Shown: positions 15,080 to 36,756, counted from the stretch's first letter. The stretch is DNA of 64,000 nucleotides from an uncultured Acidobacteriota bacterium (GCA_963822445.1 CAWGHO010000002.1:1728001-1792000); one strand, 5' to 3'. The notes: generated by a model from the letters alone, not told the origin. Made by a program: numbers and translations.

Positions 15080-15155
15080 TGTGGTGTAGCTCAGTTGGTA
15101 GAGCGCCGGATTGTTAATCCGGTGGTCGGAGGTTCGAGCCCTCCCGCCACAGCCA
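15080..15155 (+). tRNA. tRNA-Asn(GTT)
   Basis: 76 nt cloverleaf: acceptor tgtggtg/cgccaca, anticodon arm ccgga-ttgttaa-tccgg, TTCGAG T-loop, G73, encoded CCA; TTGACA at 15025. Confidence 0.96.
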
Positions 15156-15178: not shown

Positions 15179-15208
15179 CGTCAGAAATGAACACCAGCGG
15201 CGCTCATT
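15179..15208 (+). promoter_or_regulatory. Putative ECF promoter, copy 1
   Basis: CGTCAGAAA-N14-GCTCATT, 6 nt before ATG 15215 (leaderless-like spacing). Confidence 0.7.
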
Positions 15209-15214
15209 CTCTGC

Positions 15215-16222
15215 ATGAGAATTTTGTGGCTTTCGCTCGCTCTAGCCAATTCGCTCGCCGCATCGACGGCACTCGCGGACGTCATCACCATCGAGGTTGA
15301 TGGCAGTTCGCTGACGCACGCGCATGGCATCAATGATCTCGACCGCATCGTCGGGTTCCATCATCGCTCCGAGACCGGGACCACCCACTACGCATTCGTG
15401 CGCGAGGCCAGTGGCACGTTCTCCAGCGCCGGCCCGGACCACCCTTCGTTTCCCTGTCCGCCGCTCTGCGACAACGTGAAAGCGCACTCGATCAACAATG
15501 CCGGTGACATCGCTGGCACCTATGGTTCCGGTCTGAACCATTCCTTCATTCGCACCGCGGCGGGTGAGATCACGACGTTCGACGTCGAGGACAGCGCGAA
15601 CACGTTCGCCGACGGGATCAACGAGTCGCTGCAGGTTTCCGGATACTTCGACGACGCTGTCTGTCCGGCCGAGCCGCTGCCCTGTTCGCACGGCTTCATT
15701 CGCAACCCGAACGGCGAGCTCATCATCTTCGACGTGCCCGGAAGCACGGGTACGTTCCCCGGCAAGATCAACAATGCGGGCGACGTCACCGGCTCGTACA
15801 ACGACCTCGAAGGCAATGGGCGCGGATTCATACGGCTGGCGAACAGCCAGACGTTCATCACCTTCGACGTACCGGGTTCCGTCGGTACCGAGGCTCAGGC
15901 GATCAACGACGCCGGGACGGTGACGGGGGCCTACATATCGTTCAACCCGGACATCGGTTACCGGCGGCACGGGTTCGTGCGGTCGGCACTCGGGTTCACG
16001 ACGGTCGACGTGCCCGGCGCGCACGCGACCATCCCCTCGGGAATCAACAACGACGGCGACCTAGTCGGCACGTACGACGTCCTGACCGCCGACGGACGTG
16101 TCACGCGAGGGTTCGTCATCACCGCCGACGACGCTGTCTCCCAGATTCCGACGTTATCCGCCTGGATGGGCATCGCATTGTTGCTGTCCCTGATCGCACT
16201 CGCGGTTTATCGGATCGTCTGA
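15215..16222 (+). CDS. Surface protein with HAF-like extracellular repeats and an IPTL-CTERM sorting signal
   Basis: Signal peptide; about six (A/P)xxINxxGx(I/V)xG...HGFIR...FDVPG repeats; C-terminal IPTLSAWMGIALLLSLIALAVYRIV. Confidence 0.85.
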   Translation: MRILWLSLALANSLAASTALADVITIEVDGSSLTHAHGINDLDRIVGFHHRSETGTTHYAFVREASGTFSSAGPDHPSFPCPPLCDNVKAHSINNAGDIAGTYGSGLNHSFIRTAAGEITTFDVEDSANTFADGINESLQVSGYFDDAVCPAEPLPCSHGFIRNPNGELIIFDVPGSTGTFPGKINNAGDVTGSYNDLEGNGRGFIRLANSQTFITFDVPGSVGTEAQAINDAGTVTGAYISFNPDIGYRRHGFVRSALGFTTVDVPGAHATIPSGINNDGDLVGTYDVLTADGRVTRGFVITADDAVSQIPTLSAWMGIALLLSLIALAVYRIV

Positions 16223-16237
16223 CCCTCCTCGCGGTCG

Positions 16238-16344
16238 GGCGGTAGGCGGTAGGCGGTAGGCGGGGGAACGAAGCGCTCGTAGTAGGGCGCGGGTTCCTGC
16301 CTACCGCCTACCGCAAGGCGCGCAGCGCCGTACCGCCTACCGCC
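16238..16344. repeat. Inverted repeat built from 7-bp units (GGCGGTA)n
   Basis: ggcggtaggcggtaggcggtaggcgg ... cctaccgcctaccgc ... taccgcctaccgcc. Confidence 0.8.
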
Positions 16345-16375
16345 CTACGTCCGTAGCGCCTTTTTTCATGGGTGA

Positions 16376-16405
16376 CGTCAGAAAGTGGCAGCATTCACGC
16401 TCCTT
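16376..16405 (+). promoter_or_regulatory. Putative ECF promoter, copy 2 (giant-protein operon)
   Basis: CGTCAGAAA-N14-GCTCCTT. Confidence 0.7.
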
Positions 16406-16477
16406 CCCGTCGAGGTCCGAACAATGAAGAAGTCCAAACAACGACATCCACACCAAAAGAGAGAAGGAGAAGAAGCA

Positions 16478-16900
16478 ATGTCCAGCAATCCCGTGGTCCC
16501 GGTCTCGATCTTCAATGCGAACACGACTTCGGTGAACGTCACCGTCAACAACGGTACGCAGTTCACCGTCGACGGCGCGAAGGCGCCGACCTTCTCGCCC
16601 GCTTTCAACAACAGCGCCTGTAGCTTCGCCACGAATCCGTCGGGCAACACGTTCGGCGTCACGGGGACGAACTTCGTCGACATCACCCCCGTCGGGTCGA
16701 ACCAGCCGATCCAGTTCCAGATCAACATCTCCAGCAGCATCCAGGTCACTTCGCTGCAGCTCTACATGTTCTGGGCGAGCCAGACCACCGCCGGCTGGGT
16801 CCTGCTGAACAACGGGCAGATCATCGCCATGGACACGCTCTCCGGCGGCGGCTCGTCGAGCTCGCCGAGCTCGTCGCGGACCACCGCGAAGCGCTACTGA
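16478..16900 (+). CDS. Hypothetical 140-aa beta-rich protein (small subunit 1)
   Basis: ATG after strong AAGGAG; paralog of 33094-33474 (FNANT..VNV, ITPVG.NQP, SLQLY.FW, LLNNGQ..AM). Confidence 0.85.
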   Translation: MSSNPVVPVSIFNANTTSVNVTVNNGTQFTVDGAKAPTFSPAFNNSACSFATNPSGNTFGVTGTNFVDITPVGSNQPIQFQINISSSIQVTSLQLYMFWASQTTAGWVLLNNGQIIAMDTLSGGGSSSSPSSSRTTAKRY

Positions 16901-16927
16901 GCCGCACCGCCGCGCCCCGAGATCCTC

Positions 16928-19900
16928 ATGAACGGCGGGACACCTTTGCAGGAGATCGCACCCGGTCTGTATGTGATCGGTGTCTCGCCGTCGTCTCCCT
17001 CGTTCTCCTCGCCGCCGGCGACGACGTACGCGTACTACCTCACGCAGGCGGTGCCGTCGCCGGCGGACCCCGCACCCACGCTCGACGACACCTGGACGGA
17101 TGCGGATTACAGCGGCTGGTATCTCTTCCTGATCGACCCCATCGTCGATGCCACGAAGTTCGTTGACGAGGCCCGCTCGCAACTGCCGGCGCTCACCGCG
17201 TCGCCGTCGCAACTGCCGATCGGGATCATCTGGATGCCCGATCCGTCGGACTTCGGCGCCGCGCAGGGACTCGTTCTCTACTCGCCCGCGGGTCAGCCGG
17301 ACCTGCGGACGCTCGGGCCGGGAAGCCCGCCGCCGGTCGCGTTCACCTGGGGAGCGCTGACGCTCACGATCGGCGGCGCGCGTTTCTCGCTGGATACGGC
17401 GGCGAATGCGATCACGATCAGCAGTCCGTCGGGCTCGGCGATCTCGTTGTCGTTCTGTCCGCAGGGCGGCACCGTCCTTCCGTACTCCAACGTACCGGCG
17501 ACGCCGTGGCTCGTCTCGATTCCGCTCACCGGGGACGCCGCGGGCACGCTGGGAATGACGGCAGCGCTGGAGCTCGGCTATCTGGTCGAGACGTTCGGCT
17601 GCGGCTTCCGCTACATCACCGAGTCGAGCGATGACGCGGGGCTGTATTACACGTTCGTTCCTCCCGCTGCGCCGTCGCTCGACGGGACGTTTCTCGGTTT
17701 CGCGCTGCAGTTGCATCCGCTGTTGCCTTGCGACCCCGCGGCGACGCGCCTCGCGTTCGATCTCGCCGGTTCGCCGCCGAACGAATATCAGACGGCGAGC
17801 GCGAACGTCGTGGCGCCGTACTTCCTCACGACGAATGGTGGGTCGTTCAACCTCGTGCCATATGACGTCTCCGCGGACGCGACCCTCGCGCCGCCGGGCT
17901 TCGCATTCTGTCTCGCACCCGGTTCGTCGCCGTCGCCCCAGCTCTACCTCGCGCCGTCGGGCACGTTTCAGGTCTCGTCGTTCAGCTCACCGGGCGAAAC
18001 GGGTGCGCAGTGGCTCTGCGGACTCACGGCGCAGGAGTACCTTCAGATCGAGACGAACGATCTGGTTGCGTTCATCGCGGGCATGCCCGCGTACGCGCCG
18101 GGAGCGGGCAGCGGCCCCGCGGCCGGCCACGGTCCTACGCTCGACGCGACGTTCACCACGTCGTGGCTGCAGTTTCCCGTCGCCTCGTCGATCGGCTCGC
18201 GCTCGTACTTCGGCATGCCCAGCGCATCGATCTATTACGCCGGAATCGGCGACTCGTTCGGCACGCCCGTCGTGTCGAAGCTCGTCACGTTCGCGGACAG
18301 CGCCACCTTTCCGATCGTTCCGTACGGAGGCATCTACGCCAGCGTCGAAGCGGGCGGTGGAGTCCCGGTCTTCAACGCCGGCGTCAGTCCCGTTGCGTTC
18401 GCGAGCTTTGAGTCGCTCGTGCTGAGCAGCGAGAGGCACCTGCGAGCGACGGCCGGCACTCCCGGTCCCGTGTTCACGGTCTCTTCGGCGAACGGTCTGA
18501 CGTCGGCCGGCGAGATCGGCTCGCCGCCGCCGGCGGGCACCGCGCTCACGCCGCAGGGTTTCGTCGTCCAGTTGAATGCCGGCGGAACGTGGGCCCAGCT
18601 GGATCTGGCGTTGAGCCCGGAGACGGCCGGACAGTATCTGAGCTTCAACGGAACGCCCACCGTCGTCGAGCCCGCGATCGCGAACGTCGTTCTGCAGACG
18701 GAGCTCTTCCTCGTCGTCACGAATCCCGCGAGCGTTGGCAACTTCAGCAACGAGATCAGCGTCGGAGGATTCAACTTCACGCTCGGCATCCAGCCGTCGT
18801 CGCCGCATGCGGATGACGGCACGCTGCTGATCTTCAAGTTCAACACGACCGCATCGCTGGCACAGCTCGCGGAGCGCACGGATCTCTGGGCGGACACGGC
18901 GACCTTCGTAACGGACGTCGCCGCCGCACAGCAGCAGATCCGCGAGGCCATCGAAGTGGCGCGGAACTATCAACGCGGCGCGGGCGCCAGTCCTTCGTCG
19001 GGCAATCCGTTCGCGTACTTCCTTTCGATCCTCGACGTCCCGGGCTGGACCGGCATCCTCGCGCTGAACTGCGCGATCGACGGCAACGGGATGCCCGAGG
19101 ATTTCCAGATGCTCCTCGGGGGAATCCAGGGGCAGTTGCGCGCCCACCATCTCGGAGTCGAGCGCAATCGCGTGACCCAGGATCCCGATGGCGGCGCGAG
19201 CCTGCAGCAGAGCTCTCTGTTCGGCGTCATCCACTACGCCAGTCCATCGTCGGCAGCCTCGCCGGCGGAATCGCCGGCGCCGCTCGCCTACGGAGTGGAA
19301 ACGCTCACGGTCGTCTTCCAGAACTCGCAGATCACGCAGTTCAACGTCGTCGTCGGGCTGACGATCAACGAGCTGTTCGGACGCGAGACCGCGCTCGTCG
19401 TCACGTCGCTCTCGCCGCCTCCGCGGAACACGCTCGAGATCGCGGGGCAATACCAGGTCACCGGTTCCATCGGCGTCGTCACGTTCCAGACGGACCAGGC
19501 GTTCATCTACGACTTCCCCGTGCCGGCCGGCGCGGCGCGCGTGCTGGATCACGTCCTGTTCGACAGCGCATCGCTCGTTCCTGTTTCGTCGGTGCCGCTG
19601 TCGGGCGGCGGGACGCAGATGACGGCTCAGTTCTCACTGGCCGGCGGGATCTGGTTCAGCGCCCAGCCGTTCCCGGGCTCTGGAGACTTCGATCTTTTCT
19701 CATACGGCAACGGCGTCGCGGCGGACGGCGGACTGTCGTTCACGAACATGACCATGCAGATCGTCTTCACCCTCGACTCTGCGGGCGCGATGGTCCCCGG
19801 CAGCCAGACCGTGACGTTCGTGCCGTCGCTCCTCACGATCCTGCCGTCGCCGGGCGCCATCCGCTCCGGCAGCCTGCTCGGTGCGCTGCCATTGCAGCTC

Positions 19901-20506
19901 TCGCAATTCCTGGAGTCGCCGGCGGGGATGACGACATCCTCCCTCGGCGCAAACGTCGTGAACTGCCTGCAGCTCGAAGGACAGCCGTCGAGCAGCTCGC
20001 CGCCGCTGTCGCCTTCCGAGTCGTTGCCGGCATCGCCGCCGGCCGTGTCGCCCGCGACCTCGCCGTACGTCACCGTCGCGCCGACGTTCGCGCTCGAGTA
20101 CGACCTCCCGCTCGGTTCCCTCGGCTCGCTCTCCGGTCCGAACGCCGGCCTGATGGCGAAGCTCTTTCTCGGGTGGGGGCCGTCGACGGTCATGCCCGGC
20201 AGTGACGCGGCCGCGGTGTTCGTGCAACTGCCGCAGCTCTCCGCCGGTCTCGGCGGCGGCTTCAATCTCCAGGGAATCCTGAAGACCGTCTTCGGCGACG
20301 CGAACCTGCTCGCGGTCGACGTCGACGGACTGCCGGTGTACGCGCTGCTCTTCAACAACGTGCAGCTCAGCGTGCTCGGTTACGCCTTCCCTCCCGGCGT
20401 GATCGTCGATTTCCTCCTCTTCGCCGGGCAGGCCTCGCAGAACGTGAACACCAACACCAGCAACCTCGCCTGGTTTCTCGGCGTGCTGCCACAGGGGTCG
20501 CCGTAA
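16928..20506 (+). CDS. Giant hypothetical protein 1 (1192 aa; Ser-Pro-rich, Lys-poor, no signal peptide)
   Basis: Long ORF with host-like codon usage; stop overlaps the next start (TAATG). Confidence 0.9.
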   Translation: MNGGTPLQEIAPGLYVIGVSPSSPSFSSPPATTYAYYLTQAVPSPADPAPTLDDTWTDADYSGWYLFLIDPIVDATKFVDEARSQLPALTASPSQLPIGIIWMPDPSDFGAAQGLVLYSPAGQPDLRTLGPGSPPPVAFTWGALTLTIGGARFSLDTAANAITISSPSGSAISLSFCPQGGTVLPYSNVPATPWLVSIPLTGDAAGTLGMTAALELGYLVETFGCGFRYITESSDDAGLYYTFVPPAAPSLDGTFLGFALQLHPLLPCDPAATRLAFDLAGSPPNEYQTASANVVAPYFLTTNGGSFNLVPYDVSADATLAPPGFAFCLAPGSSPSPQLYLAPSGTFQVSSFSSPGETGAQWLCGLTAQEYLQIETNDLVAFIAGMPAYAPGAGSGPAAGHGPTLDATFTTSWLQFPVASSIGSRSYFGMPSASIYYAGIGDSFGTPVVSKLVTFADSATFPIVPYGGIYASVEAGGGVPVFNAGVSPVAFASFESLVLSSERHLRATAGTPGPVFTVSSANGLTSAGEIGSPPPAGTALTPQGFVVQLNAGGTWAQLDLALSPETAGQYLSFNGTPTVVEPAIANVVLQTELFLVVTNPASVGNFSNEISVGGFNFTLGIQPSSPHADDGTLLIFKFNTTASLAQLAERTDLWADTATFVTDVAAAQQQIREAIEVARNYQRGAGASPSSGNPFAYFLSILDVPGWTGILALNCAIDGNGMPEDFQMLLGGIQGQLRAHHLGVERNRVTQDPDGGASLQQSSLFGVIHYASPSSAASPAESPAPLAYGVETLTVVFQNSQITQFNVVVGLTINELFGRETALVVTSLSPPPRNTLEIAGQYQVTGSIGVVTFQTDQAFIYDFPVPAGAARVLDHVLFDSASLVPVSSVPLSGGGTQMTAQFSLAGGIWFSAQPFPGSGDFDLFSYGNGVAADGGLSFTNMTMQIVFTLDSAGAMVPGSQTVTFVPSLLTILPSPGAIRSGSLLGALPLQLSQFLESPAGMTTSSLGANVVNCLQLEGQPSSSSPPLSPSESLPASPPAVSPATSPYVTVAPTFALEYDLPLGSLGSLSGPNAGLMAKLFLGWGPSTVMPGSDAAAVFVQLPQLSAGLGGGFNLQGILKTVFGDANLLAVDVDGLPVYALLFNNVQLSVLGYAFPPGVIVDFLLFAGQASQNVNTNTSNLAWFLGVLPQGSP

Positions 20507-20844
20507 TGAGCTCTCCTCTCGATGTCAACGGCGTGATCGCGTGGCTGAACGGGACGTTCGGCCTGTCCATGCCGGTGCTGCCGTTTTCCGCGCCCTGGCT
20601 CGCGCCGTTCGCCGGCCTCTGGAATCTGCTCGTGCCGGGATCGCTGCCAAAGCCGGGCGATCCCTTCCCCTGGACGATCCCCGTGTCGGGCACGTGGACC
20701 GTGCCCGTCGGCGGCACGTTCGTGCTCGAGAACATCACCATCGTCGTCGCCGCCGGGCCGGCGACGAAGGGATTCCTCGCGCGCGTGAAGCGCGCCCTCA
20801 CCCGCCCGAAGACCAAACGAAAGCGAGCCAACCCGGCGCCGTGA
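20506..20844 (+). CDS. Hypothetical 112-aa protein, hydrophobic/Pro-rich with a basic C-terminal tail
   Basis: Translational coupling to the upstream gene; GC3-rich codons. Confidence 0.7.
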   Translation: MSSPLDVNGVIAWLNGTFGLSMPVLPFSAPWLAPFAGLWNLLVPGSLPKPGDPFPWTIPVSGTWTVPVGGTFVLENITIVVAAGPATKGFLARVKRALTRPKTKRKRANPAP

Positions 20845-20899
20845 ACGGCGTCTCGCACTGCTACGTCCACCGCCTTCATTTCACTCGCGAACAAGGAGA

Positions 20900-21358
20900 A
20901 TGATCATGCCCTCACCAACCCCTCCCGGCACCAGCGTTTCCGTCTCGGCGACCCTGCAGTTCTCGGGTCAGGACGTCGTCATCAGCAGCGGCGACATCTC
21001 CAATGCCTCCCAGGCGCTCTCGAACCTCGTTTTCTCGCTCACGGCACCGGTCACCCTCGGTTCGTTCGACAACTTCATCGATGCGCTGCACGCCGACCTC
21101 GGCGTGCCGCTCACGTCCTCCGAGATCACCAGCGCGATCGATGAGATCCCGAGCTCGCCGGCCGTGCTCGGTGCGATCAAGAACGACCTGCTGGCGATCG
21201 TGAGCACGCCGCTCATCCTCAACACGCTCAACGTCAACACTGCCGCCGGGGCGTATTCGGTCGGCGTTTCGTTCCCGGTGCACATCCCGATCACGAGCTT
21301 CCTCTCGTTCAACGGCATCGGCGTCCTCGTCTCCTACCAGTCGGCCAGTCCCGCATAG
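20900..21358 (+). CDS. Hypothetical 152-aa protein
   Basis: AAGGAG ribosome-binding site (start 20900 or 20906); ends SASPA; 7 nt before the next gene. Confidence 0.85.
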   Translation: MIMPSPTPPGTSVSVSATLQFSGQDVVISSGDISNASQALSNLVFSLTAPVTLGSFDNFIDALHADLGVPLTSSEITSAIDEIPSSPAVLGAIKNDLLAIVSTPLILNTLNVNTAAGAYSVGVSFPVHIPITSFLSFNGIGVLVSYQSASPA

Positions 21359-21365
21359 GCGAACG

Positions 21366-24300
21366 ATGAGCACCGACGTCATTCTGCAGCTCAGCGGCAC
21401 CCTCTTCGGCGTCGATCTCGACGCCGAAGTGGTGGTGGCGGGAGGTCCGCTCTCCTTCCGCCTGGCGCCCGCGCAGCCGATTCCGTTCGAGGAGATCTGG
21501 AACGCGATCGACACCGAGCTGCAGAACATCGCCGGCTTCAGCCTGCCGGACATCGCCGGCGGTCCGTGGGGCGGACTGTTCGGCGCGGGCGGTACGGTGA
21601 TGCCGACGCTGTGGATCGCGCCTTCCGGTCCGGGCCCTGCCGCGGGCACGTATCTCCAGCTCGATTTCTCGGAGCCGATCCAGATCGGCGGAACGTTCTC
21701 GACGCCCATCGGCACGATCACCATCGAGCCGAACTTCCAGGTCTGGAGTCTCTACTTCGGCTACGACCAGGCCACAGGGCCGGGCCTGGCCATTCGCGCG
21801 AAGATCTCGACGTCGAGCGCCGGCAGCGCCGCCACTTCCGACAAGGCGCAGATCGTCAGCTATCCGTTTCCCGTGCCGGTGCAGCCGTCCTCGAACGGGT
21901 TCCAGGTGAACTACCTCGGGCTCGGACAGCGCATCGGGCCCACCGTCAACGTCACCGGAGACGATCCGCTCGCCGCGATCTTCCAGCAGTTGGAGACGGA
22001 GCTCGTCGGCACCGATCCGCGGACGATCCTCACGACGCTCGCGAATGATTTCTACCAGCCGGATCGCGACTGGTTCATTGCCGCGGACATCTCCCTGCGT
22101 GGGTTCCGCGTGCGGATCCTCTTCAACGATCCGGTGCTTTACGGGCTGGAGATCACGGTCAGCTCGTCTCCGCCAACGTTCTTTTCCGGCCTGCTCTTCG
22201 AGATCCTCTACCAGAAGCTCGGCCCGAATCTCGGCGTTTACTACGGTGCGCTCACGCTGCCGATGGCTATGCGCCGCATCGTGCTCGACGGCGTGATCCT
22301 GATCCTTCCGGGCTTCTCGATCTGGGTCTACACCAACGGCGACTTCCGCGTGAACGTCGGCTGGCCCGTCGGCACGAGCTCGATCGGCGTGCAGGTCGGT
22401 CCGCTCATCGGCTGGGGCGGTTTCTATTTCGCGAAGCTGAGCAGCGGAGACAATCCGGGCGCGCAGCCGAGCGTCGATTACAACCCCATCCTCGCGTTCG
22501 GTCTCGGCGTAACGCTGTCGCTCAACGAGAGCTTCAACGCCAGCATCTTCAGCGCGACGATCTCCGTCTCGCTCTCGGCCACGTTCCAGGGATTGCTCGC
22601 GTGGGAGGCTGGCAACTCGATCTCCGGTCCACCCGATCACTACTGGTTTGCCGGCACCGCGGGGTTGTCGGTGCTCATCCAGGGAACGGTCGACTTCGCG
22701 ATCATCAAGGCATCGGTCACGATCAGTTTCACAGCGAACCTCGGCGTCGCCTTCGAGACCGGTTACCAGACCCTCGTCGCGGTCTCGGCGTCGGTCTCCG
22801 TCTCCGTCTCCATTCACGTCATCTTCTTCACGATTCACCTCTCGTTCAGCACGACCGTGAGCACGCAGTGGGTGATCGGCAGCGGCACCGGCATCGCGTC
22901 GGTCAACGGTCCGCAGGCGCCCGGCCTCGCCATCACTGGCGGCTTCGGGGCGCCCGATCCCGTGCACGTGGAAGCGCTCCGCTCGGCGCGGCTACTCATG
23001 GATCGCATGGCGGCAACGCCGCGGCGCGCCGCGAGCCCCACGGATCCAGTCACGCGGCTCGATGAAGCGAGCCGCATCGCCGCGGTGTCGCCCATCTCGA
23101 TCCCGGTGCAGTTCGTTCTCCAGCCGACAGTCGTCTACGACAGTCCTCCTTCGTTCAACGTCATCGCGTCGTTGCTGCTCGAGTCTCCCGGGCCCGGCTC
23201 ATCGCCACCGGCGTCGCCGGCGATGGGAACGCCGTTCGAGAGATTGATCGTGGCGATGGTGGACTGGCTTCTGGCCATGTTTCCGACGGGCACGCTCAGC
23301 GAGCGTTTCGCACAGGTCGTGTCGGCCCTCGGGTCAGGCAATGAAGCGCCGTTCGACGGAGACTGGACCGCGTTTCAGTCGAGTCTTCAGACGTTCCTGC
23401 AGAGTGCCCTCACGTTCGACGTTACCGCCGCGGGAAGCGACTCGCCGTCCGGCGGCATCGACAGCGTGGCCGTCTTTCCGATGCTGTACGGCCTCCAGCT
23501 CGCGTACGTCGACGAGAACGGTGACCCGCAGACGATCGACTTCGACACCTTCAATCCGACTCCCGCGGATTACCCCACCGCGGTGAGCCTGTACTTCGCC
23601 GACTCGCAGTGGAGCGGCAGTCCGGCCGGCAACGGCGGATTCACTTCCCCGTCGCTGAGCATGGCCACGTTCACGCTCGCCGACTACTTCCTCATGCAGG
23701 CGCGCAATGCCGCGAACGCGCTGTACACCGCGGCCACGGCGTACGAGCAGAACGCGACGAACGTTTTCCTCGCGCAAGTCGATGCATTGCGCGCCGGCGG
23801 TGGCTCGCAATGGGACCTCGTCGACGCCACCACCGAGCACGCGGCGGACCTCGTCGGCGGGAACGAGCTCGAAACGCTGCTTCAGCAATTCGACTACGCG
23901 TCCGCCGCGGGGATGGGCTCGCGATTCCTTCTCAACGGACTGCAACTGCCGGTGCCGGCCGACGTGCCGCCCGATCCGACGTTCGAGAACATGAAGAGCG
24001 TTCCGACGGCGGGCCTGTACATCCTCACCGGGCAGCAGTACGCAATCGCGCAGGGCGCGACCACGGCAACCGGGACGTTGAGTCTCGATCCCTCCGCCCC
24101 TTCCGGCTGGATCACGTTCGACGGCGGTTCCACCGGCGCCGTTTCGACGATCGAGCTTCCGTCGTCGATTCCGCCGTCGCCGCTGCCGCAGTGGCAGACG
24201 GGGACACAGAGCCCGTCCGCCGGCACTGCCGTATTCAACGCGCTGCCCGCGGTCACGTCGCATCCGCTGTACGTCTCGCTGAAGAACCAGATCGCGTGGG

Positions 24301-28295: not shown

Positions 28296-31252
28296 GCGAG
28301 GGCGGCCTTCCCGTCACACTGGCCGGCTTCCGCAATTTCCACGAGGGGAAGTCGATCGTCGTGTGCGGGTGCGGGTCATCGCTGTCGGCATTCACGCGGC
28401 CCGAGCGCTTCGTCACGATCGGCGTGAACGACGTCGGCCGTCTCTTTCAGCCCGATTACCTGGTCGTGCTCAATCCGCGGCAGCAGTTCACCGGCGATCG
28501 CTTCCGCCACGTCGAGGAAAGCCGGGCCAAAGCGATCTTCACGCAGCTCGATCTCCGGCTCCGTCACCCGCACGTCGTCCGCTTTCGCCTCGGAAAGCGC
28601 GGAGGCACGGAGCCCGTCGATCCCAACGTGCTGCACTACACGCGCAACTCGCCGTACGTCGCGCTTTGCCTGGCGATGCACATGGGAGCGAAGCGGATCG
28701 GTCTGATCGGCGTCGATTTCACCGACCATCACTTTTTCGGGCGGACCGGACGTCATTCACTGGCGCGCGAGCTGCCGCAGATCGACTCCGAATACCGGCG
28801 CCTCGGCGAGGTCGCCAGGCGGCTCGGCATCGAGGTCTTCAACCTCAGCGAATCGAGCCGGATCACGGCCTTTCCGAAGATCTCCGCCGATGCCTTCGCG
28901 CGACTCGACGCGCCGCCGTTGCGCATCGTCTCTTACGCAACGACACCCGTCGCCGGCGTTCCGCCCGTGCTCGCGAGGTGCATCGCCGAGCGGACGCCGC
29001 ATGAGGGCCGTGCCGTATGGGCCCGCGCGGGCTACGGCAACGGCGTCGTGTTCGACGGCGACGTCGAGTACACCCGCTCCTCGCGCCAGGCGAACGCGCT
29101 GCTCGACGCCGCGGACGTCGTGATCGTGCACAACGGCAAGGTCGATGCGCGTCACGTCGCGCTGATCGACAGCAAGCCGGTCGTCACGCTCGCGCACAAC
29201 TACAAGTGGAACGTGGACGAGACGTTCGTCCAGCGCGGAATGCCCGGGCTGGTCGTCGCGCAGTACCAGGCGACGCTCCCGGAGTTCGCATTGTGGACGC
29301 CGGTGCCGAATCCGATTCCGTTCTGGGAACCGGCCTACGCGGCGGGCGAGAAGGGTCCGCGGATCACCATCGCCTTCACGCCGTCCGGAAAACACGAGCG
29401 CTATCCGGAAGACCATCACCTGTACTGGCACGCGAAGGGATATCGCTCGACGATGGCCGTTCTCGAGCGGCTCGCCGCGCGGCGCGGCATCGCCCTCGAG
29501 GTCATTCGAAACGCGCAGATCTCGCACGCGCGCTCGATGGAGATGAAGCGCCGCGCGCACATCGTGATCGACGAGTGCGTGACCGGCAGCTATCACCGCA
29601 ACAGTCTCGAGGGACTGGCCGCCGGCGCCGTCGTCGTGAACGGCGTGGGACGCCTGGCCGGCGTGGCCGAATTGCTCCGTGACGTGAGCGGATCCGAAGA
29701 AGTGCCGTTCGTCGCCGCGGGTCTCGACGACCTGGAGGCTGTTCTCGAGAAGCTGATAGCGCGCGGCGCCGCCGCGCTTGCCGAGGAAGGTGCTCGCGGC
29801 CGGCGATGGCTCGAAGCGCATTGGGATTTCGGGCGGCAGTGGAGCCGCTTCTGGCAGCCCGCGATCGAGACTGCGCTGCAGCAGCGCGGTGTGGTGCAGG
29901 CCTCCGGCCTGCCTTCCGGCGGTGAGAAAGAGGCAGGCTGGAAGCCCGCACCACACGGACACGGGATCGTCATTCCATTCGGCGGGCGCGACCGGCTGCC
30001 GCTGCTCGAGCGCACGCTCCTCGCGGTCGCCGCGAGCGGCGCCAGCGAAGTGATCGTCGTCGAAATGGCGGAAGACGAGCCCTGCGCGCGCGACGCGGTC
30101 GCCGCCGCCGGTTTCCAGCACGTCTTCATCCGCGACGTCTTTCATAAGACGCGTGCCATGAACGCCGGCGCGGCGCGCATCACCAGCGAACGTTTCTTCT
30201 GGCTCGACGCCGACATCGTCGCGACTCCGCCGTTCTTCGCGAATGCCGTCGCCGAAATGGACGAGCGGAAACTCGATTGCCTCGTGCCCTGGACCACGGT
30301 CGGTTACCTGACCGGCGAGGACACGGCAGCCGTTCTGGCCGAATCGAAGTCCGTCGACGAATGCAAACCGCAGACGACGTACCGCTCTCCGCGCGCGAGC
30401 CGCGGCGGCGTCGTCCTGGTGCGCACGTCGTTCGTGCGCGAGTACGGCGGGATGTGCGAAGAGTTCCGGGGATGGGGAGCGGAAGACGATGCGTGGTTTG
30501 CGAAAGCGAGATGCCTCGGCACCGCCGACGTCACCCGCCGCCGCGACCAGCACGTGTACCACCTTCATCACGAGAACAGCGGCGGCGCCCGTCCCGGCGC
30601 GGCGCTCGCTCTGAATCCGCATTACCGGCGCAACGTCGCGTTGTTTCGTGAGGTGCGATCGCTTCGCACGCGCGAGCGTTTCCTGCAACGGTTTCCCGCC
30701 GTGCCCCTTCGCGCCGAGGGAGATCCGCCCTGGGGCGGCGAGGCGGCTCGGCCCGCGGAACCTCGCGCGACGGCCGTGCTTCCGGCCGGCCGCCAGGGGC
30801 CGCGGCTGAACCTTGGCTGTTGCGACGATGTGCGCCGTGGGTTCGTGAACGTCGACCGCGTCGCCGGCAGGGGAGTCGATGCCGTCGTCGACCTCGCGGA
30901 ACCGTGGCCCTGGAACAGCGATTCGGTCGACGAGATCCGCGCCTGGGACATCATCGAGCACCTCCCCGACAAGGTGCGCACCATGAACGAAATGTGGCGC
31001 GTGCTACGGCCCGGCGCGACGGCCGAGATCGCCGTCCCCACCACCGACGGCCCGGGCGCGTTTCAGGATCCGACGCACGTCTCGTTCTGGAACCGGCGCA
31101 GCTTTCTCTACTACGAGCACGGCAATCCGTATCGCGAGCGGTTCGCGCGCAGCTACGGCATCGAGGCGCGGTTTCGCGTGCGCTCCGAGCGGACCGAGAG
31201 CTCTGTCGATGGCCCGCGGCTGCACATCGTGCTGGAGGCGGTGAAGCCATGA
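28292..31252 (+). CDS. Four-domain fusion: Maf/DUF115-like + GT-B-like + GT2/GT7C + class I SAM methyltransferase (986 aa)
   Basis: ATG 28292 after GGAGG; VVCGCGSSL..TIGVND..PDY..MGAKRIGLIGVDF; IVIDE...SLEGLAAGAVVV; IVIPF..WLDADI..GGMCEEFRGWGAEDD; LNLGC..NVD..IIEHL..EMWRVLRPG. Confidence 0.85.
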   Translation: MSEGGLPVTLAGFRNFHEGKSIVVCGCGSSLSAFTRPERFVTIGVNDVGRLFQPDYLVVLNPRQQFTGDRFRHVEESRAKAIFTQLDLRLRHPHVVRFRLGKRGGTEPVDPNVLHYTRNSPYVALCLAMHMGAKRIGLIGVDFTDHHFFGRTGRHSLARELPQIDSEYRRLGEVARRLGIEVFNLSESSRITAFPKISADAFARLDAPPLRIVSYATTPVAGVPPVLARCIAERTPHEGRAVWARAGYGNGVVFDGDVEYTRSSRQANALLDAADVVIVHNGKVDARHVALIDSKPVVTLAHNYKWNVDETFVQRGMPGLVVAQYQATLPEFALWTPVPNPIPFWEPAYAAGEKGPRITIAFTPSGKHERYPEDHHLYWHAKGYRSTMAVLERLAARRGIALEVIRNAQISHARSMEMKRRAHIVIDECVTGSYHRNSLEGLAAGAVVVNGVGRLAGVAELLRDVSGSEEVPFVAAGLDDLEAVLEKLIARGAAALAEEGARGRRWLEAHWDFGRQWSRFWQPAIETALQQRGVVQASGLPSGGEKEAGWKPAPHGHGIVIPFGGRDRLPLLERTLLAVAASGASEVIVVEMAEDEPCARDAVAAAGFQHVFIRDVFHKTRAMNAGAARITSERFFWLDADIVATPPFFANAVAEMDERKLDCLVPWTTVGYLTGEDTAAVLAESKSVDECKPQTTYRSPRASRGGVVLVRTSFVREYGGMCEEFRGWGAEDDAWFAKARCLGTADVTRRRDQHVYHLHHENSGGARPGAALALNPHYRRNVALFREVRSLRTRERFLQRFPAVPLRAEGDPPWGGEAARPAEPRATAVLPAGRQGPRLNLGCCDDVRRGFVNVDRVAGRGVDAVVDLAEPWPWNSDSVDEIRAWDIIEHLPDKVRTMNEMWRVLRPGATAEIAVPTTDGPGAFQDPTHVSFWNRRSFLYYEHGNPYRERFARSYGIEARFRVRSERTESSVDGPRLHIVLEAVKP
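29889..29956. repeat. Palindromic element inserted in-frame in the glycosyltransferase gene (family 2)
   Basis: gtgtggtgcaggcctccggcctgcc...ggcaggctggaagcccgcaccacac; homologous to the intergenic element at 49049-49115. Confidence 0.8.
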
Positions 31253-32649
31253 CCGTGCGCTCCTTCGCCGTCGTGATTCCTTCGGCGAACGCCGCAAAGC
31301 TGATCGAGTGCGTGCGGGCGATCCGGCGGCACGAGCCGTCCCTCGATCCGTCCCGCATCATCGTCGTCGACGACGGCGCGCGGGCAGGCGCCGGGTCCGA
31401 GCTGCCGGATGTACGCTGGGTCGAAGGGGTGCGGCCGTTCGTCTTCGCGACCAACGCCAACCTCGGAATCGCAGCCGCGGGCGGTGACGATGTCGTTCTG
31501 CTCAACGACGACGCGCGTCTGGTCACGTCCGGAGGGTTTACCGCCCTCGCCGCGCATGTCGATCGCCAGCCGTCCCTCGGCCTCGTGGCCGCCGCCGTCC
31601 GCGGTGCGGTGGGCAATCGCGCGCAGCGGCCGCGCGCCTCCGGCGGACTGAGAGCCGAGCGCTCGAAACTCTGCTTCGTTTGCGTGTACATCCCGCGCTC
31701 CGTGTACGGCGCCGTCGGCCCGCTCGACGAGCGCTTCGTCGGCTACGGCTACGAGGACGACGACTATTCGCTCCGCGTAAGAGAGCGCGGCTTCGAGCTC
31801 GGCATCGCCGATGACTGCGTCGTCGAACATGATGGAGGCGCCACCTTCCGCACGTGCCTCGATTACGTCGAGCTCGAGCAGCTCAATCGCCGGCTGTATC
31901 TCGAGAAACAGGATCGTCTTCGCGGAGCCGAACGCTTCGTCCTGGCCATGCGCGTGAAGAACGGCGTGCCCTTTGTCGGCGAGGCCATCGAGCGGGCGAT
32001 GTCGCTCTGCGATCGCGCCCTCATCTTCGACGATCATTCCGATGACGGCACGGCCGCAATCTGCCGCGCACTCGGACCGCGCGTCACCGTCGTCGAGTCG
32101 CCGTTCGAAGGTCTCGACGAGGCCCGCGACAAGAACGAAATGCTTCGTCTTCTCCGGTGGGAGCTGCCGGACTGGGTGCTCTGGATCGACGCCGATGAGG
32201 TACTGGAGCGCAGCGGCCCTCAGCTCCTGCGCGAGGCCACGCGCCGCGATCCGTTTGCGGCCGCCTTCGCGCTGCGCGTCGCGTACGTCTGGGACGATCC
32301 GGAGCAGGTCCGTGTCGACGGCATCTTCGGGCGCTTCCATCGCGAGTCGCTGTTCCGCATGCGCGGGCAGTCCGTGGAACGCCTTCAGTTTCGGGAGCGC
32401 GGTTCGGGGCCGAACCTCCATTGCGGCAACGTGCCGATGAATCTCGCCGGCCATCGCCGCCGTCTGGGCGTGCGTCTCAGGCACTACGGCTACATGACCG
32501 CCGAGCAGCGGCAGAGGAAGTACGACTGGTACGTGCACGTCGATCCCGACAACGCTGCGGAAGATCACTATCGGCACATTGCCGGAGAGCGCGGGGCGCG
32601 CTACGCACCCGGGCCGCCGCGATTCGTGCGATGGACGGAAGGACGGTGA
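31249..32649 (+). CDS. Tandem two-domain GT2 glycosyltransferase (466 aa)
   Basis: ATG 31249 (ATGA overlap); VVIPS..IIVVDDG..LLNDD..LDERFVGYGYEDDD; second domain FDDHSDDGT..WVLWIDADE..HYGY. Confidence 0.88.
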   Translation: MTVRSFAVVIPSANAAKLIECVRAIRRHEPSLDPSRIIVVDDGARAGAGSELPDVRWVEGVRPFVFATNANLGIAAAGGDDVVLLNDDARLVTSGGFTALAAHVDRQPSLGLVAAAVRGAVGNRAQRPRASGGLRAERSKLCFVCVYIPRSVYGAVGPLDERFVGYGYEDDDYSLRVRERGFELGIADDCVVEHDGGATFRTCLDYVELEQLNRRLYLEKQDRLRGAERFVLAMRVKNGVPFVGEAIERAMSLCDRALIFDDHSDDGTAAICRALGPRVTVVESPFEGLDEARDKNEMLRLLRWELPDWVLWIDADEVLERSGPQLLREATRRDPFAAAFALRVAYVWDDPEQVRVDGIFGRFHRESLFRMRGQSVERLQFRERGSGPNLHCGNVPMNLAGHRRRLGVRLRHYGYMTAEQRQRKYDWYVHVDPDNAAEDHYRHIAGERGARYAPGPPRFVRWTEGR

Positions 32650-32653
32650 GCAG

Positions 32654-33073
32654 GTGACCGCCAACCCCATTCAACTGAATCACACCCTCACGATTCTGCA
32701 TCCGCTGGTCCCGGCGGCGACCGAAGCCTTCGAGCCGGCGGTCGAGGGCGTGGCCTCGCCCCCTCCCCTGACGAGCGCGGTGCTTTTCAACGCCACCACC
32801 GAGGCCGTCAACTCCATCAGCGTCGGCGCGGTCGTGTCTCCGCCGGCCGGCCTGCCCGGCTTCAGCTCCAGCCAGGCCCCGTCTTCGTGCACCTGCAGAC
32901 TTTCGCAGGGCGAAACCTCGCTTCAGGTCACGTTCGCGAACGGTGTGGCCTGGTCGTCGACGCTCCTCGTCGGCTCGTACGGCGGCACGGTTTCCATCTG
33001 GTGCTTCGAGAACGGATTCGTGCTCACCACCGCCTCCAATCAGCTCGCGCAGATCAGCTTCTGGTCGGAATGA
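32654..33073 (+). CDS. Hypothetical 139-aa beta-rich protein (possible distant small-subunit paralog)
   Basis: GTG 4 nt after the upstream stop; LFNATTEAVN resembles FNANT..VN; ASPPP and VSPP motifs. Confidence 0.7.
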   Translation: MTANPIQLNHTLTILHPLVPAATEAFEPAVEGVASPPPLTSAVLFNATTEAVNSISVGAVVSPPAGLPGFSSSQAPSSCTCRLSQGETSLQVTFANGVAWSSTLLVGSYGGTVSIWCFENGFVLTTASNQLAQISFWSE

Positions 33074-33093
33074 AGAAGAAAGGAACGGGGACG

Positions 33094-33474
33094 ATGACAG
33101 TCGCGGTGTCGGTCTTCAACGCCAACACGGATCAGGTGAACGTGAACATCAACAACTCCTCCTCGGGCTTCAGCATCAACGGCACCACGGCGGCGCTCTC
33201 GTTCTACCCGATGACGCCCACCGCCTCTGACGCGCCCACGTTCGGAAGCCGGCCCGGGCCGAACGTGCTGGGGCCCGGGTCGAACTCACTTGCGATCACG
33301 CCCGTGGGAGTCAATCAGCCCGGACTCTTCACGCTTCAGATCCCGACCACGCAGCAGATCATCTCGCTGCAGCTTTACGTCTTCTGGGACTCGGCGACGA
33401 CGATCGGCTACGCGCTGCTCAACAACGGCCAGGTGCTGGCGATGGAAAACCAGCCGTACGGGAGCCCGTCATGA
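33094..33474 (+). CDS. Hypothetical 126-aa beta-rich protein (small subunit 2)
   Basis: Clear paralog of 16478-16900; alternative coupled start at 33070; ends YGSPS. Confidence 0.85.
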   Translation: MTVAVSVFNANTDQVNVNINNSSSGFSINGTTAALSFYPMTPTASDAPTFGSRPGPNVLGPGSNSLAITPVGVNQPGLFTLQIPTTQQIISLQLYVFWDSATTIGYALLNNGQVLAMENQPYGSPS

Positions 33475-34844
33475 AACGGGCCGCACTGTCCGCTCTGCTG
33501 ATGCTGATCGCGGCGCATGGCCATGCGCAGACGTGCAATCCGGCTCAGGACGACTGTACCGTCGCGCAGGCGCTCGACCATTACCGCGCGCAACCGCTCG
33601 CGGCGGCGATCGAAAGCGGCGTGCACGCCGCCAACCTTCCGGCGTCGCCATCCGCCGGCGGCATTCACAACACCTATCAGGATTTCCTCAGCCTCTTCGG
33701 CTTCGCCATCGAAAGCGTGACCGAGGAGGACAACGGGCAGGTCATGGTCGTGCGTTTCAATCCACTCCGCGCGGGACGCACGCTCCTCGGCGCGACCCTC
33801 ACGATCATCGAGCCTGCCGTCGGGCAGGTCGTGCAGCGGGCCATCCCCGAGGACGTACGCGCGGCGACGGTGTCCGGCCTGGACCAGAGCCTCGGCGAGA
33901 CGGATGACGTTACGTACTCGCTTTCGTGGTCGCCTGCATCACCCGACTGTCCCGCCGCCGAGCGAAGCGCATGTTGGGGACGTTCGCCGGCCGCCTATCG
34001 CGAGCTGATCGCAACCGTCGCCGCCGCGCACGTGCAGGAGCTCGAGCCGGCGCTCGCGGCGGCGGCCTCCGACCTGTTGCGGTACTTCCCCGGCTCCGCG
34101 GGCTCGCTCTTCGATCAGCCACTCTCTCGCGCCACCGATCGCGAGGCCTTGCTCGCCGGCCTGCGCGATCTCGCCGCGAGTGAACGAACGACGGCGCCTG
34201 TCGCGGCGACAGCGTTGCCGCGCCTCATCGACCAGCAGCCGCAGTTCGCGCTCACGACCAGCTACCGCATGCCCGGCCGCCTCGGCGGCCCTCGTCATTT
34301 CGAAGCCGCGTTCGAATTCCATTCCGGGCTGCGGAACGTCAACGGGTTGCGCCGGCGATGCCACGCCGTCGCCCGGGACAAACGCGCGGCCTGTCTCAAT
34401 GCCGCCATCACCGCGTTCGCGACGAAGGACGCCGTCGTCCACGATTTCGTCGTCCGCGCCACTGCGCGGCGCACGCTTGCCTATCGCGTCGACGACCTCT
34501 GGCTCGATCAGCCGGTCGAGGGCTTCACGCCCATCGATCTCGGGCCGGCGACATCCTTCCGCATCCGCGCGCAGGCCGGGCGGCAGTTCGCGACGCCGCT
34601 GACGGAGCAGCACATCCGCGCGGACTGGTCGCTCGAAGGGACGTTCAATGGCAGCGATGCCACGCGTCCTGCGAATCGATGGGTCTCGACGCTCACCCTC
34701 GCCGTCCCGGCCGGCGCCAGCATGACCATTCCGGTCTCGCTCACGTATGCGAGCGAGGCCGAGCTGCTCGGCGCGCAGACCGATCGCATCGGCGCGCACC
34801 TCGGCCTCACCTGGCGTCTGCCGCGTGCTCTCTCGGGGCAATGA
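33471..34844 (+). CDS. Secreted hypothetical protein with C-terminal amphipathic beta-strands (possible outer-membrane protein)
   Basis: Signal peptide MKRAALSALLMLIAAHGHA; three Cys pairs; ends IGAHLGLTWRLP. Confidence 0.75.
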   Translation: MKRAALSALLMLIAAHGHAQTCNPAQDDCTVAQALDHYRAQPLAAAIESGVHAANLPASPSAGGIHNTYQDFLSLFGFAIESVTEEDNGQVMVVRFNPLRAGRTLLGATLTIIEPAVGQVVQRAIPEDVRAATVSGLDQSLGETDDVTYSLSWSPASPDCPAAERSACWGRSPAAYRELIATVAAAHVQELEPALAAAASDLLRYFPGSAGSLFDQPLSRATDREALLAGLRDLAASERTTAPVAATALPRLIDQQPQFALTTSYRMPGRLGGPRHFEAAFEFHSGLRNVNGLRRRCHAVARDKRAACLNAAITAFATKDAVVHDFVVRATARRTLAYRVDDLWLDQPVEGFTPIDLGPATSFRIRAQAGRQFATPLTEQHIRADWSLEGTFNGSDATRPANRWVSTLTLAVPAGASMTIPVSLTYASEAELLGAQTDRIGAHLGLTWRLPRALSGQ

Positions 34845-34949
34845 CGCTCATGACAGGTAGGGAAATGGTCCTCAGCAGGCTCACCCAAACAGGAACAGGA
34901 ACGGCTCGCCCGCGGTGTCCTGTCCTCACGTTCTCCGGATCGGGAGCCC

Positions 34950-35447
34950 ATGTGCTCCGCGATCGGATTCTCCGACGAAATCCTTGCCGCATTGCTTCCG
35001 GTCGCGATCCGGATGGCCACGCGCTGGTGCGCATCCGCCGACGACGCGCAGGACATCGCGCAGGACGCGATGCTCCGCCTGATGCGTCAGAACCGGCCGC
35101 CTGAGAACGTCGCGGCCTGGCTGTTCGTCGTGACGCGACGTCTTTCGCACTTGCGCTGGCAGCGCGAGCGCACGCGCGCGGAGGCGGAAGCCGCGTTCGC
35201 GATGAGCGGTCTGCCGGACCTGCACCTGGAAGTGCGCATTCACGCCGACTCGGTGCTCTCGCAACTGACCCCGAAGGAGCGTGCACTGCTGCTCTTCGTC
35301 GTCGAGGGCTGGCGCACGAACGACATCGCCAGCGCCTTCGGCTGCTCTCCCGGAAACATCGGGACGATGGTCGCGCGTGCGCGGACGAGGGCCAAGGCAA
35401 TCAGTACGGGGAAGCCGCGAAGAAAACATTCATCCCGAAAGCGATAG
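34950..35447 (+). CDS. ECF-type sigma-70 factor
   Basis: DDAQDIAQDAMLRL and AAWLFVVTRR (region 2); LTPKERALL...EGWRTNDIASAFGCSPGNIGTMVARAR (region 4 HTH). Confidence 0.88.
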   Translation: MCSAIGFSDEILAALLPVAIRMATRWCASADDAQDIAQDAMLRLMRQNRPPENVAAWLFVVTRRLSHLRWQRERTRAEAEAAFAMSGLPDLHLEVRIHADSVLSQLTPKERALLLFVVEGWRTNDIASAFGCSPGNIGTMVARARTRAKAISTGKPRRKHSSRKR

Positions 35448-35450
35448 GGA

Positions 35451-35480
35451 CGTCAGAAAAGGATCGCGTGGCGGCTCCTT
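35451..35480 (+). promoter_or_regulatory. Putative ECF promoter, copy 3
   Basis: CGTCAGAAA-N14-GCTCCTT immediately after the sigma gene. Confidence 0.7.
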
Positions 35481-35622
35481 TCGTTTTGAAGTCAGCTCGG
35501 TTGGGTCCGAGAGCTTCTAACAGAGAAAAGGGAGGTGATTCCCGAGTCCGGAACACGTGTGCGCAGCACCGCGGGCGCAGTCGAGTAGCGCAGTCAGATT
35601 TCTGAAAAGAGAGGAGAGATCC

Positions 35623-36381: not shown

Positions 36382-36404
36382 ACAGACAACGAAAAGGAGA
36401 AAGC

Positions 36405-36656
36405 ATGGCCATCACCATCATTCGTAATCAGACACGCGGCGTTCTGGAGCTTTGGGACGCCGGGAAGAAGCTCAAGACCATTCCGGTGGGAGGTTCCCTC
36501 CAACAGGTCCCCATCACCATCACGCAGGTCACGAGATCAGGGGTCATCCTCGCCAGAAAGAAGGGCGGGTTCGCGAACGACGACTCCTACGTGGCGACGT
36601 ACGCCAACAATTCGGTCGTGTTCACCGGTAACACGAGCGTGGTGACGTTCACATAG
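36405..36656 (+). CDS. Hypothetical 83-aa basic beta-rich protein
   Basis: ATG after AAAAGGAG; MAITIIRNQTRGVLELWD...; followed by a hairpin at 36670-36699. Confidence 0.75.
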   Translation: MAITIIRNQTRGVLELWDAGKKLKTIPVGGSLQQVPITITQVTRSGVILARKKGGFANDDSYVATYANNSVVFTGNTSVVTFT

Positions 36657-36756
36657 TCGCGGCTCGATCGAGGGAGGCGGACTTTCACCCGCCTCCCTCC
36701 CGGATCAGGGCTCGATGACGAAGTTGTTAATCCGGTGGTCGGAGTTCGAGCTCGCC

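Follow-up and report, generated by a model that had tools for sequence, protein, structure and literature searches.

The DNA studied here is a 64,000-nt window from an uncultured Acidobacteriota bacterium (GCA_963822445.1, CAWGHO010000002.1:1728001-1792000), and coordinates are counted from the window start. Between 15.2 and 36.7 kb all genes lie on the + strand, and no minus-strand gene with coding-type composition is found there; housekeeping genes occupy the window flanks beyond this locus. We denote the genes by letters: A, the run B to K, L, which encodes a sigma factor of the extracytoplasmic function (ECF) type, and M and N. Three intergenic regions of the locus contain a bipartite motif, CGTCAGAAA-N14-GCTC(C/A)TT, and this report concerns the relationship between that motif and the sigma factor encoded by gene L.

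An exact pattern search returned three matches to the motif in the window, confirming the positions given in the original prediction and its placement of the first copy 6 nt before an ATG (Table 1). All three copies are intergenic, lie on the + strand, which is the coding strand, and are located immediately 5′ of genes. None of 100 dinucleotide-preserving shuffles of the window contained any match. The 14-nt spacers bear no relation to one another, as had been stated, and the claim that the window holds no further copies also survived a search allowing up to three mismatches. When one mismatch was permitted in a 10-base core (GTCAGA-N16-GCTC), nine matches were obtained in the window versus 7.8 expected, and weak copies are therefore not in excess.

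Gene L is the one sigma-factor or DNA-binding gene of the locus, and no other sigma factor was found by Pfam among the 43 window genes scanned. L is a sigma factor of the ECF (group 4) type. The protein matches the Pfam models Sigma70_r2 (34.3 bits, residues 14-74) and Sigma70_r4_2 (38.1 bits, residues 101-146), with its remaining Pfam matches at E≤0.01 (PhyR sigma-like, GerE) overlapping the region-4 stretch; the Pfam models for region 1.1 and region 3 gave no match. Its score against the general ECF model TIGR02937 was 49.3 bits (cut-off 42.9). A profile of the sigma family matched 11 Protein Data Bank (PDB) sequences, nine of which are sigma factors, most of these deposited as ECF; the best matches were 5uxx (7.6e-10) and SigL (6dv9, 3.4e-9). 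No named ECF subfamily or equivalog reached its cut-off among the 25 of 43 NCBIfam matches listed, the best being NF058625 (49.7 vs 130). The clade is rare: 16 proteins were recovered at E≤1e-3 among 5.8 billion, 14 of them metagenomic, and the best non-self match shares 60% identity. Elsewhere in the window are a sigma-54 activator without a receiver domain (8615-9565), a Ser/Thr protein kinase (57069-58253), and a fusion of an OmpR-type DNA-binding domain with FHA (58408-59055), for which no connection to the sigma locus was found.

For comparison, homologues of protein F were aligned and the alignment was used as a query, which yielded 50 loci (1.056 Mb) from species-representative genomes, the source genome not being among them. 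Presence or absence was scored by tblastn with fourteen window proteins. A sigma homologue was detected in one of the 50 loci, a 27-kb locus (L001) from a Thermoanaerobaculia metagenome-assembled genome (MAG), and a homologue of M was found in this locus only (51% identity). The window and L001 sigma factors share 47-49% identity, and their presumed DNA-reading segments are near-identical (WLFVVTRRL; FGCSxGN(I/V)GxMVARAR). The protein encoded at position -1 to the L001 sigma gene has 126 aa and is unrelated to K.

The motif accompanies the sigma gene in this second genome, and of the 50 loci it is L001 alone that carries it. Across the 50 loci, the window-derived pattern with up to three mismatches gave 13 matches, four in L001 and nine distributed over eight of the 49 other loci. 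With up to two mismatches, L001 contained two matches (4917 and 22473) compared with 0.01 expected, and none of 100 shuffles had two or more. These two matches, sites b and c, occupy positions orthologous to copies 2 and 3. Site a precedes a unit encoding an endonuclease/exonuclease/phosphatase-family protein, an FGE-sulfatase-like protein, and a CarboxypepD_reg-domain protein. The three-mismatch match at L001 26496 was set aside, as it falls within a minus-strand open reading frame (ORF) and is probably due to chance. In L001, a 21-nt unit (consensus AACAGATCGACCGGTTCCCCG) is repeated in tandem about 10 times across 1393-1608, ending 5 nt 5′ of site a; regulators could bind to this array, or it could be a simple repeat.

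When a weight matrix was derived from only the three sites of L001, the window sites scored 24.4, 24.4, and 21.1 bits, compared with a background of at most 16.1. With a window-only matrix, L001 22473 was the top foreign match (23.6 bits), and 4917 tied with one background match (19.4 bits). We also scored the 600 nt 5′ of the first cassette gene, a region that reached 19.4 bits in L001 and at most 8.5 bits in 38 other testable loci. These 38 include a second Thermoanaerobaculia MAG (L037) and several other Acidobacteriota; seven loci with too short an upstream region and four without a C match were excluded. The motif is thus present 5′ of the cassette in both sigma-bearing loci and in 0 of 38 testable sigma-less loci. 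Alignments of the orthologous intergenic regions of the window and L001 show that the boxes are kept while spacers and flanks have diverged, indicating that both boxes are under selection.

Over the six sites of the window and L001, the fuller consensus is CGTCAGAaa-N14-GCTCcTt, with boxes CGTCAGA(A/T)(A/T/G) and GCTC(C/A). Spacing is identical in all six, and every site is intergenic and on the + strand. The core CGTCAGA-N16-GCTC is invariant among them and has seven matches on both strands of 1.12 Mb: three in the window, three in L001, and one elsewhere. This core was fixed only after L001 had been seen, and the a priori tests are therefore the pattern scans (50 loci; L001 at up to two mismatches), the matrix ranking, and the 600-nt upstream scoring.

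Table 1. Motif copies, genes, and other features of the locus; the last three rows are positions in L001, all others in the window.
Feature	Position	Strand	Description
Motif copy 1	15179-15208	+	CGTCAGAAA-N14-GCTCATT; 6 nt 5′ of gene A ATG (15215)
Motif copy 2	16376-16405	+	CGTCAGAAA-N14-GCTCCTT; 72 nt 5′ of gene B ATG (16478)
Motif copy 3	35451-35480	+	CGTCAGAAA-N14-GCTCCTT; 3 nt past sigma stop codon (35447), 142 nt 5′ of gene M ATG (35623)
Gene L	34950-35447	+	ECF-type sigma, 165 aa; Sigma70_r2 + Sigma70_r4_2
Sigma-gene leader	34845-34949	+	105 nt, intergenic; conserved in blocks with L001 21881-21989
tRNA-Asn (GTT)	15080-15155	+	ARAGORN; Rfam 72.3 bits; 24 nt 5′ of copy 1
Gene A	15215-16222	+	335 aa; signal-peptide-like N-terminus, internal repeats, C-terminal IPTL + hydrophobic tail, basic end
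Terminator-like end of unit A	hairpin 16237-16345; T6 16361-16366	+	hairpin, then short stem and T6; T6 ends 10 nt 5′ of copy 2
Gene B	16478-16900	+	140 aa; first cassette gene; all-beta, paralogue of J; strong Shine-Dalgarno
Gene C	16928-20506	+	1192 aa; conserved cassette core
Gene D	20506-20844	+	conserved cassette core
Gene E	20900-21358	+	conserved cassette core
Gene F	21366-28295	+	2309 aa; conserved cassette core
Gene G	28292-31252	+	986 aa; GT2 + methyltransferase domains (Pfam)
Gene H	31249-32649	+	466 aa; two GT2 domains (Pfam)
Gene I	32654-33073	+	no family match
Gene J	33070-33474	+	paralogue of B; no family match
Gene K	33471-34844	+	457 aa; signal-peptide-like N-terminus; no family match
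Gene M	35623-36381	+	252 aa; signal-peptide-like
Gene N	36405-36656	+	83 aa
GC-rich hairpin	36669-36699		between convergent N (+) and MFS/spermidine-synthase-like gene (36757-39801, -)
L001 site a	1614-1643	+	3 mismatches; 5′ of three-gene unit of exported-looking proteins
L001 site b	4917-4946	coding strand	5 nt past preceding gene, 43 nt 5′ of B-homologue ATG; orthologous to copy 2
L001 site c	22473-22502	coding strand	abuts sigma stop codon, 148 nt 5′ of M homologue; orthologous to copy 3

We consider it likely (a probability of roughly 70%) that CGTCAGAaa-N14-GCTCcTt is the promoter recognized by the sigma factor of gene L (34950-35447) and that it heads three transcription units, namely A, B to K with the sigma gene, and M-N. 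This reading is favored because the only sigma-bearing relative, L001, has the motif at matching places, and the local ECF sigma is the sole candidate reader of the motif encoded in both loci. Fixed spacing combined with a free spacer sequence is a signature of bipartite sigma recognition. The motif displays both of these traits, and in addition has a single orientation, lies 5′ of genes, and is inherited with the sigma gene. Like an ECF promoter, it consists of two boxes at a fixed spacing on the coding strand; passages of PMC5758882 give ECF promoter spacers of 14-17 bp, a range into which the motif spacer falls by either count (14 or 16). The original prediction had proposed an ECF promoter from the window, and that proposal gains support from the co-occurrence of sigma gene and motif in L001, the orthologous positions, and the ranking by the L001 matrix.

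In the mechanism we envisage, the upstream box would act as a -35 element recognized by domain 4 of the sigma factor, and the downstream box as a -10 element recognized by domain 2. Standard promoter geometry places the -10 hexamer at -12 to -7. Taking CTCMTT as this hexamer, transcription starts are predicted at 15215, 16412, and 35487. The first unit would be gene A, whose mRNA is probably leaderless and begins with the A of its ATG (15215); this prediction is made because the geometry puts +1 on the ATG, the Shine-Dalgarno sequence is absent between copy 1 and the ATG, and 15215 is the earliest possible start codon in the frame. The second unit would be an 18.5-kb operon, B to K, that can run on into the sigma gene, giving rise to positive feedback. 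Read-through of this kind is possible because no terminator-like site lies between K, the sigma gene, and M (scan of 32500-37000), which leaves the feedback suggested in the original prediction plausible. The third unit, M-N, would follow immediately 3′ of the sigma gene.

The activity of the sigma factor would be set by the quantity of it that is made, given that no anti-sigma gene is evident. Pfam and NCBIfam searches found no anti-sigma domain in K, M, N, L001 x3, or the L001 homologue of M; both M and K begin with a signal-peptide-like sequence and lack a cytoplasmic domain.

The boundaries of the three units are plausible as first proposed. Within the second unit, genes B to K form a compact run, in which the ORF table shows neighbors either overlapping or separated by no more than 55 nt. 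A hairpin followed by T6 separates A from copy 2, and the hairpin has a minimum free energy of -91.1 kcal/mol (z -4.8), with none of 200 shuffles equally stable. Since this terminator-like structure sits just 5′ of copy 2, unit 2 needs a promoter of its own. A simple terminator scan missed the hairpin. It is unusually long and GC-rich (16237-16345) and built of GGCGGTA / TACCGCC repeats. The hairpin past N is likely the end of unit 3; its region has a minimum free energy of -50.4 kcal/mol (z -3.1). Simple sigma-70 promoter and terminator scans of both regions returned no promoter-like sites and one minus-strand terminator-like site. The extension of the regulon to the surface protein and the two downstream genes held in part: M is conserved with the motif in L001, and A and N are not conserved there, making M the sole conserved extra member.

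The protein encoded by A has internal repeats with a 276-nt period. The family search for A gave sub-threshold matches only (DUF3466, 18.2 bits, cut-off 25.1), and tblastn detected no homologue in the 50 loci. The label IPTL-CTERM had been applied to it, and in the translation the letters IPTL do stand before a hydrophobic tail; scanned against NCBIfam at E≤10, the protein yielded only midcut_by_XrtH (15.5, cut-off 45) and HAF_rpt (12.3, cut-off 22.65), and no IPTL-CTERM sorting-signal model.

The proteins of unit 2 largely lack recognizable families. C, D, E, F, I, J, K, M, and N had no matches in Pfam, NCBIfam, PADLOC, or PHROGs, and a PDB sequence search with C and F found none. At E≤1e-3, 766 representative homologues of C were recovered; F has 144 homologues, from many phyla. 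By tblastn, C is present in 46 of the 50 loci, G in 17, B in 13, H in two, and K in none. An AlphaFold2 model of B built from a 29-sequence alignment is a beta sandwich (pLDDT 86.3), for which no PDB fold matched at E≤0.001. The B/J family comprises proteins of 120-160 aa with an N-terminal (V/I)FNA...VxVNxG motif, and one to three tandem copies are found 5′ of C in many loci. At least 50 genomes carry the cassette (B-family, C, D, E, F, G; 16478-31252), and they span many phyla, among them Acidobacteriota, Gemmatimonadota, Proteobacteria, Actinomycetota, Bacteroidota, and Planctomycetota; the proteobacterial carriers include Erwinia, Brenneria, Raoultella, and Xanthomonas. Remoter relatives of F and C have 3000-4000 aa and LysM domains.

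In unit 3, neither M nor N had a family match. The Atlas look-alikes of M are all unnamed, and an AlphaFold2 model made without an alignment (pLDDT 32) is unusable for assigning its function. The leaders of M in the window (35481-35622) and L001 (22503-22650) are about 140 nt long and share short blocks, GGGTCCGAG and GGAGGT..CCCGA; the L001 leader is more stable than its shuffles (z -2.4), and the window leader is not.

Directly 5′ of the sigma gene, the window and L001 share a conserved element that the original prediction overlooked. This element, GGTAGGGA-N16-CTCACC, lies at 34856-34885 and has the same spacing as the main motif; the blocks common to the two sigma leaders, at 21884-21983 in L001, are AGGTAGGGA-N16-CTCACC, TCGCCCGC, TCCTGYCCTCACG, and TCGGGAGCYCATG. 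It occurs once in the window and once in L001, and being single in each locus it therefore defines no regulon in view. We considered whether it might be a weak copy of the main motif and rejected this, as it scores 1.05 and -5.05 bits with the matrix of the motif (ranks 261 of 127,942 and 754 of 53,994). We treat the leader element as separate from the motif and as a candidate input promoter of the sigma gene; as such it would be the likely entry point of the inducing signal. A hairpin sequestering the sigma Shine-Dalgarno was also rejected: RNAalifold on the two sequences paired GGCTCACC with GGGAGCC, including one compensatory pair, but single-sequence folds of the leaders are no different from shuffles (z 0.25 and -0.08), and the minimum-energy fold of the L001 leader lacks the Shine-Dalgarno pairing. 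By eye on the alignment, no conserved sigma-54 GG-N10-GC signature was seen in both sigma leaders.

Several observations weigh against assigning the motif to this sigma factor. Autoregulated ECF sigma factors usually carry their own promoter directly 5′ of the sigma gene; the 105-nt leader here has no copy of the motif, and the element conserved in it differs. With the window-only matrix, L001 site 1614 scores just 15.2 bits, within the background (up to 19.4). The comparison comprises two genomes, and L001 is also the nearest cassette relative (54% identity in F), so that the co-occurrence of motif and sigma gene represents a single evolutionary event. The sequence examined amounts to 64 kb from the source genome and 27 kb from that of L001. 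The reverse of the motif, GAGC-N16-TCTGACG, could also be a two-box promoter, in antisense. Finally, the boxes lack AAC (-35) and CGT (-10), reported in passages of PMC5758882 and PMC8103513 as hallmarks of ECF promoters, and because of their absence the promoter would be non-canonical.

The main alternative is that the motif is a real cis-regulatory signal read by another alternative sigma factor, encoded elsewhere in both genomes, or by a DNA-binding regulator, with the local sigma factor reading GGTAGGGA-N16-CTCACC instead. The classical place for an ECF sigma factor's own promoter, directly 5′ of its gene, does hold this different two-block, fixed-spacing element in both genomes, the main motif is without AAC/CGT (a hallmark in passages of PMC8103513), and a small part of either genome was covered (64 kb and 27 kb). 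We nevertheless regard this explanation as unlikely. The leader element has a single copy in each locus, in front of the sigma gene alone, the motif adjoins the sigma stop codon in both genomes, and the genes exclusive to the two motif-bearing loci are the sigma gene and M only. Furthermore, the upstream box has no conserved palindrome of the sort a dimeric regulator would favor, with TGACGTCA present in two of six sites.

A role in RNA, as an anti-Shine-Dalgarno box, processing site, or protein-binding site in read-through transcripts and not as a promoter, seems very improbable. GCUCCUU can pair with AAGGAG (its sequence is complementary to the Shine-Dalgarno), and in the minimum-energy folds of two leaders, those of window B and of L001 site a, the box does pair with the downstream Shine-Dalgarno; copy 3 and L001 site c may also be intercistronic in an operon RNA. 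The box partner varies between leaders, however, CGUCAGA has no consistent partner, and in five of the six leaders the stability of the fold does not exceed that of shuffles (z -0.24 to +0.35); on these grounds we rejected the motif as an anti-Shine-Dalgarno element. Copy 1 precedes a gene without a Shine-Dalgarno, and copy 2 sits 10 nt past a hairpin and T6. No Rfam family matched the motif, the window scan returning two tRNAs only, and fixed spacing with a free spacer is atypical of RNA structure. Scarcely more credible, and if anything slightly less so, is a minus-strand promoter (GAGC-N16-TCTGACG) running antisense to the sigma gene, gene A, and the tRNA. With no minus-strand coding-type gene between 15.2 and 36.7 kb, such a promoter would yield antisense RNA only, and a + strand start codon lies at most 150 nt 3′ of all six copies; the geometry of copy 1 also suits a forward, leaderless start. 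The reversed motif likewise has two boxes and a 16-nt spacer, and each copy also closely follows a + strand gene or tRNA on its 3′ side. TCTGA resembles the -10 element reported for E. coli sigma-E. The least probable explanation, to which we give hardly any weight, is that the repeats are functionless, arising by chance or as remnants of duplication or a mobile element. The proximity of copy 1 to a tRNA gene, a common insertion site, and the partly identical spacers of L001 sites a and c (CCTC..CTCACG), which hint at duplication, are in keeping with it, but none of the 100 shuffles contained a match, and the boxes are kept across two genomes despite diverged spacers and flanks. A search for att-like repeats of the tRNA end found none, and neither did one for long direct repeats around the copies. 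Island insertion at tRNA-Asn was rejected as well: the window contains no repeat of the tRNA 3′ end, no informative direct repeats, and no clear composition shift.

Predicting the promoter of an ECF sigma factor from motifs repeated around its gene is an established approach, and the finding is therefore of a known kind. The pair proposed here would be unusual in its non-canonical boxes, the lack of an anti-sigma, the distal place of the sigma gene in the operon that it targets, and a target mRNA that is probably leaderless. Passages of PMC8103513 describe a co-transcribed anti-sigma as an original ECF hallmark that is no longer defining; none was found at this locus. Like the canonical ECF pairs (B. 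subtilis sigma-W, -X, -M, and -V; E. coli sigma-E), the system here would combine a sigma factor of domains 2 and 4 only with a two-box, fixed-spacing promoter, and its presumed targets lie in a cluster that surrounds the sigma gene, where positive feedback is possible (PMC5758882; PMC8103513). It differs from these pairs in having CGTCAGA/GCTC in place of AAC/CGT, no adjacent anti-sigma, and a sigma gene that is last rather than first in the presumed target operon, with no motif directly 5′ of it.

A second point of comparison is HrpL (ECF32) and the hrp-box type III secretion clusters. According to passages of PMC8999054, HrpL has no anti-sigma, is governed by its own expression from a different promoter type, and activates several operons of a cell-surface machinery. 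Other ECF sigma factors that lack an anti-sigma and are regulated via their own expression are known, with HrpL as the model. The likeness lies in a dedicated ECF sigma factor without an anti-sigma that would serve several operons of one large cluster. In contrast to HrpL, whose feedback is reported as negative (PMC8999054, in part), positive feedback is suggested here; no HrpL model matched this sigma factor among the 25 of 43 NCBIfam matches listed, and the cassette has no known family. ECF248 (Casas-Pastor et al. 2021) also lacks an anti-sigma and has family-2 glycosyltransferases nearby, as given in part of the supplement of PMC7826278. This group is 98% Bacteroidetes with a four-helix membrane glycosyltransferase at -1 (PMC7826278, in part), whereas K is at -1 here, and on genomic context ECF248 was rejected as the group of this sigma factor. 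The portion of the PMC7826278 supplement text that was searched, as distinct from its logo figures, does not contain GTCAGA, CAGAAA, TCAGAA, or GCTC, and a full-text literature search with GTCAGAAA and sigma gave unrelated papers only.

A broader and more tentative interpretation, which we think possible but doubtful, is that a rare anti-sigma-less ECF clade was captured by a giant-protein cassette as a portable switch consisting of leader, sigma gene, promoter, and M. With the sigma gene placed last in the 18.5-kb operon that it would drive, this arrangement might act as a delayed, self-locking commitment switch, triggered via the separate leader element.

If the sigma factor reads the motif, the two would define a small regulon of three units over about 21.5 kb, and the promoter code CGTCAGA-N16-GCTC would depart from the AAC/CGT rule. 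A non-canonical sigma/promoter pair of this type could serve as an orthogonal expression part. It would also provide a first regulatory handle on a widespread cassette with a B-family beta-sandwich, proteins of 1192 and 2309 aa, and glycosyltransferases. Should the portable-switch interpretation prove true, expressing one sigma factor would be a simple way to turn on and study this cassette.

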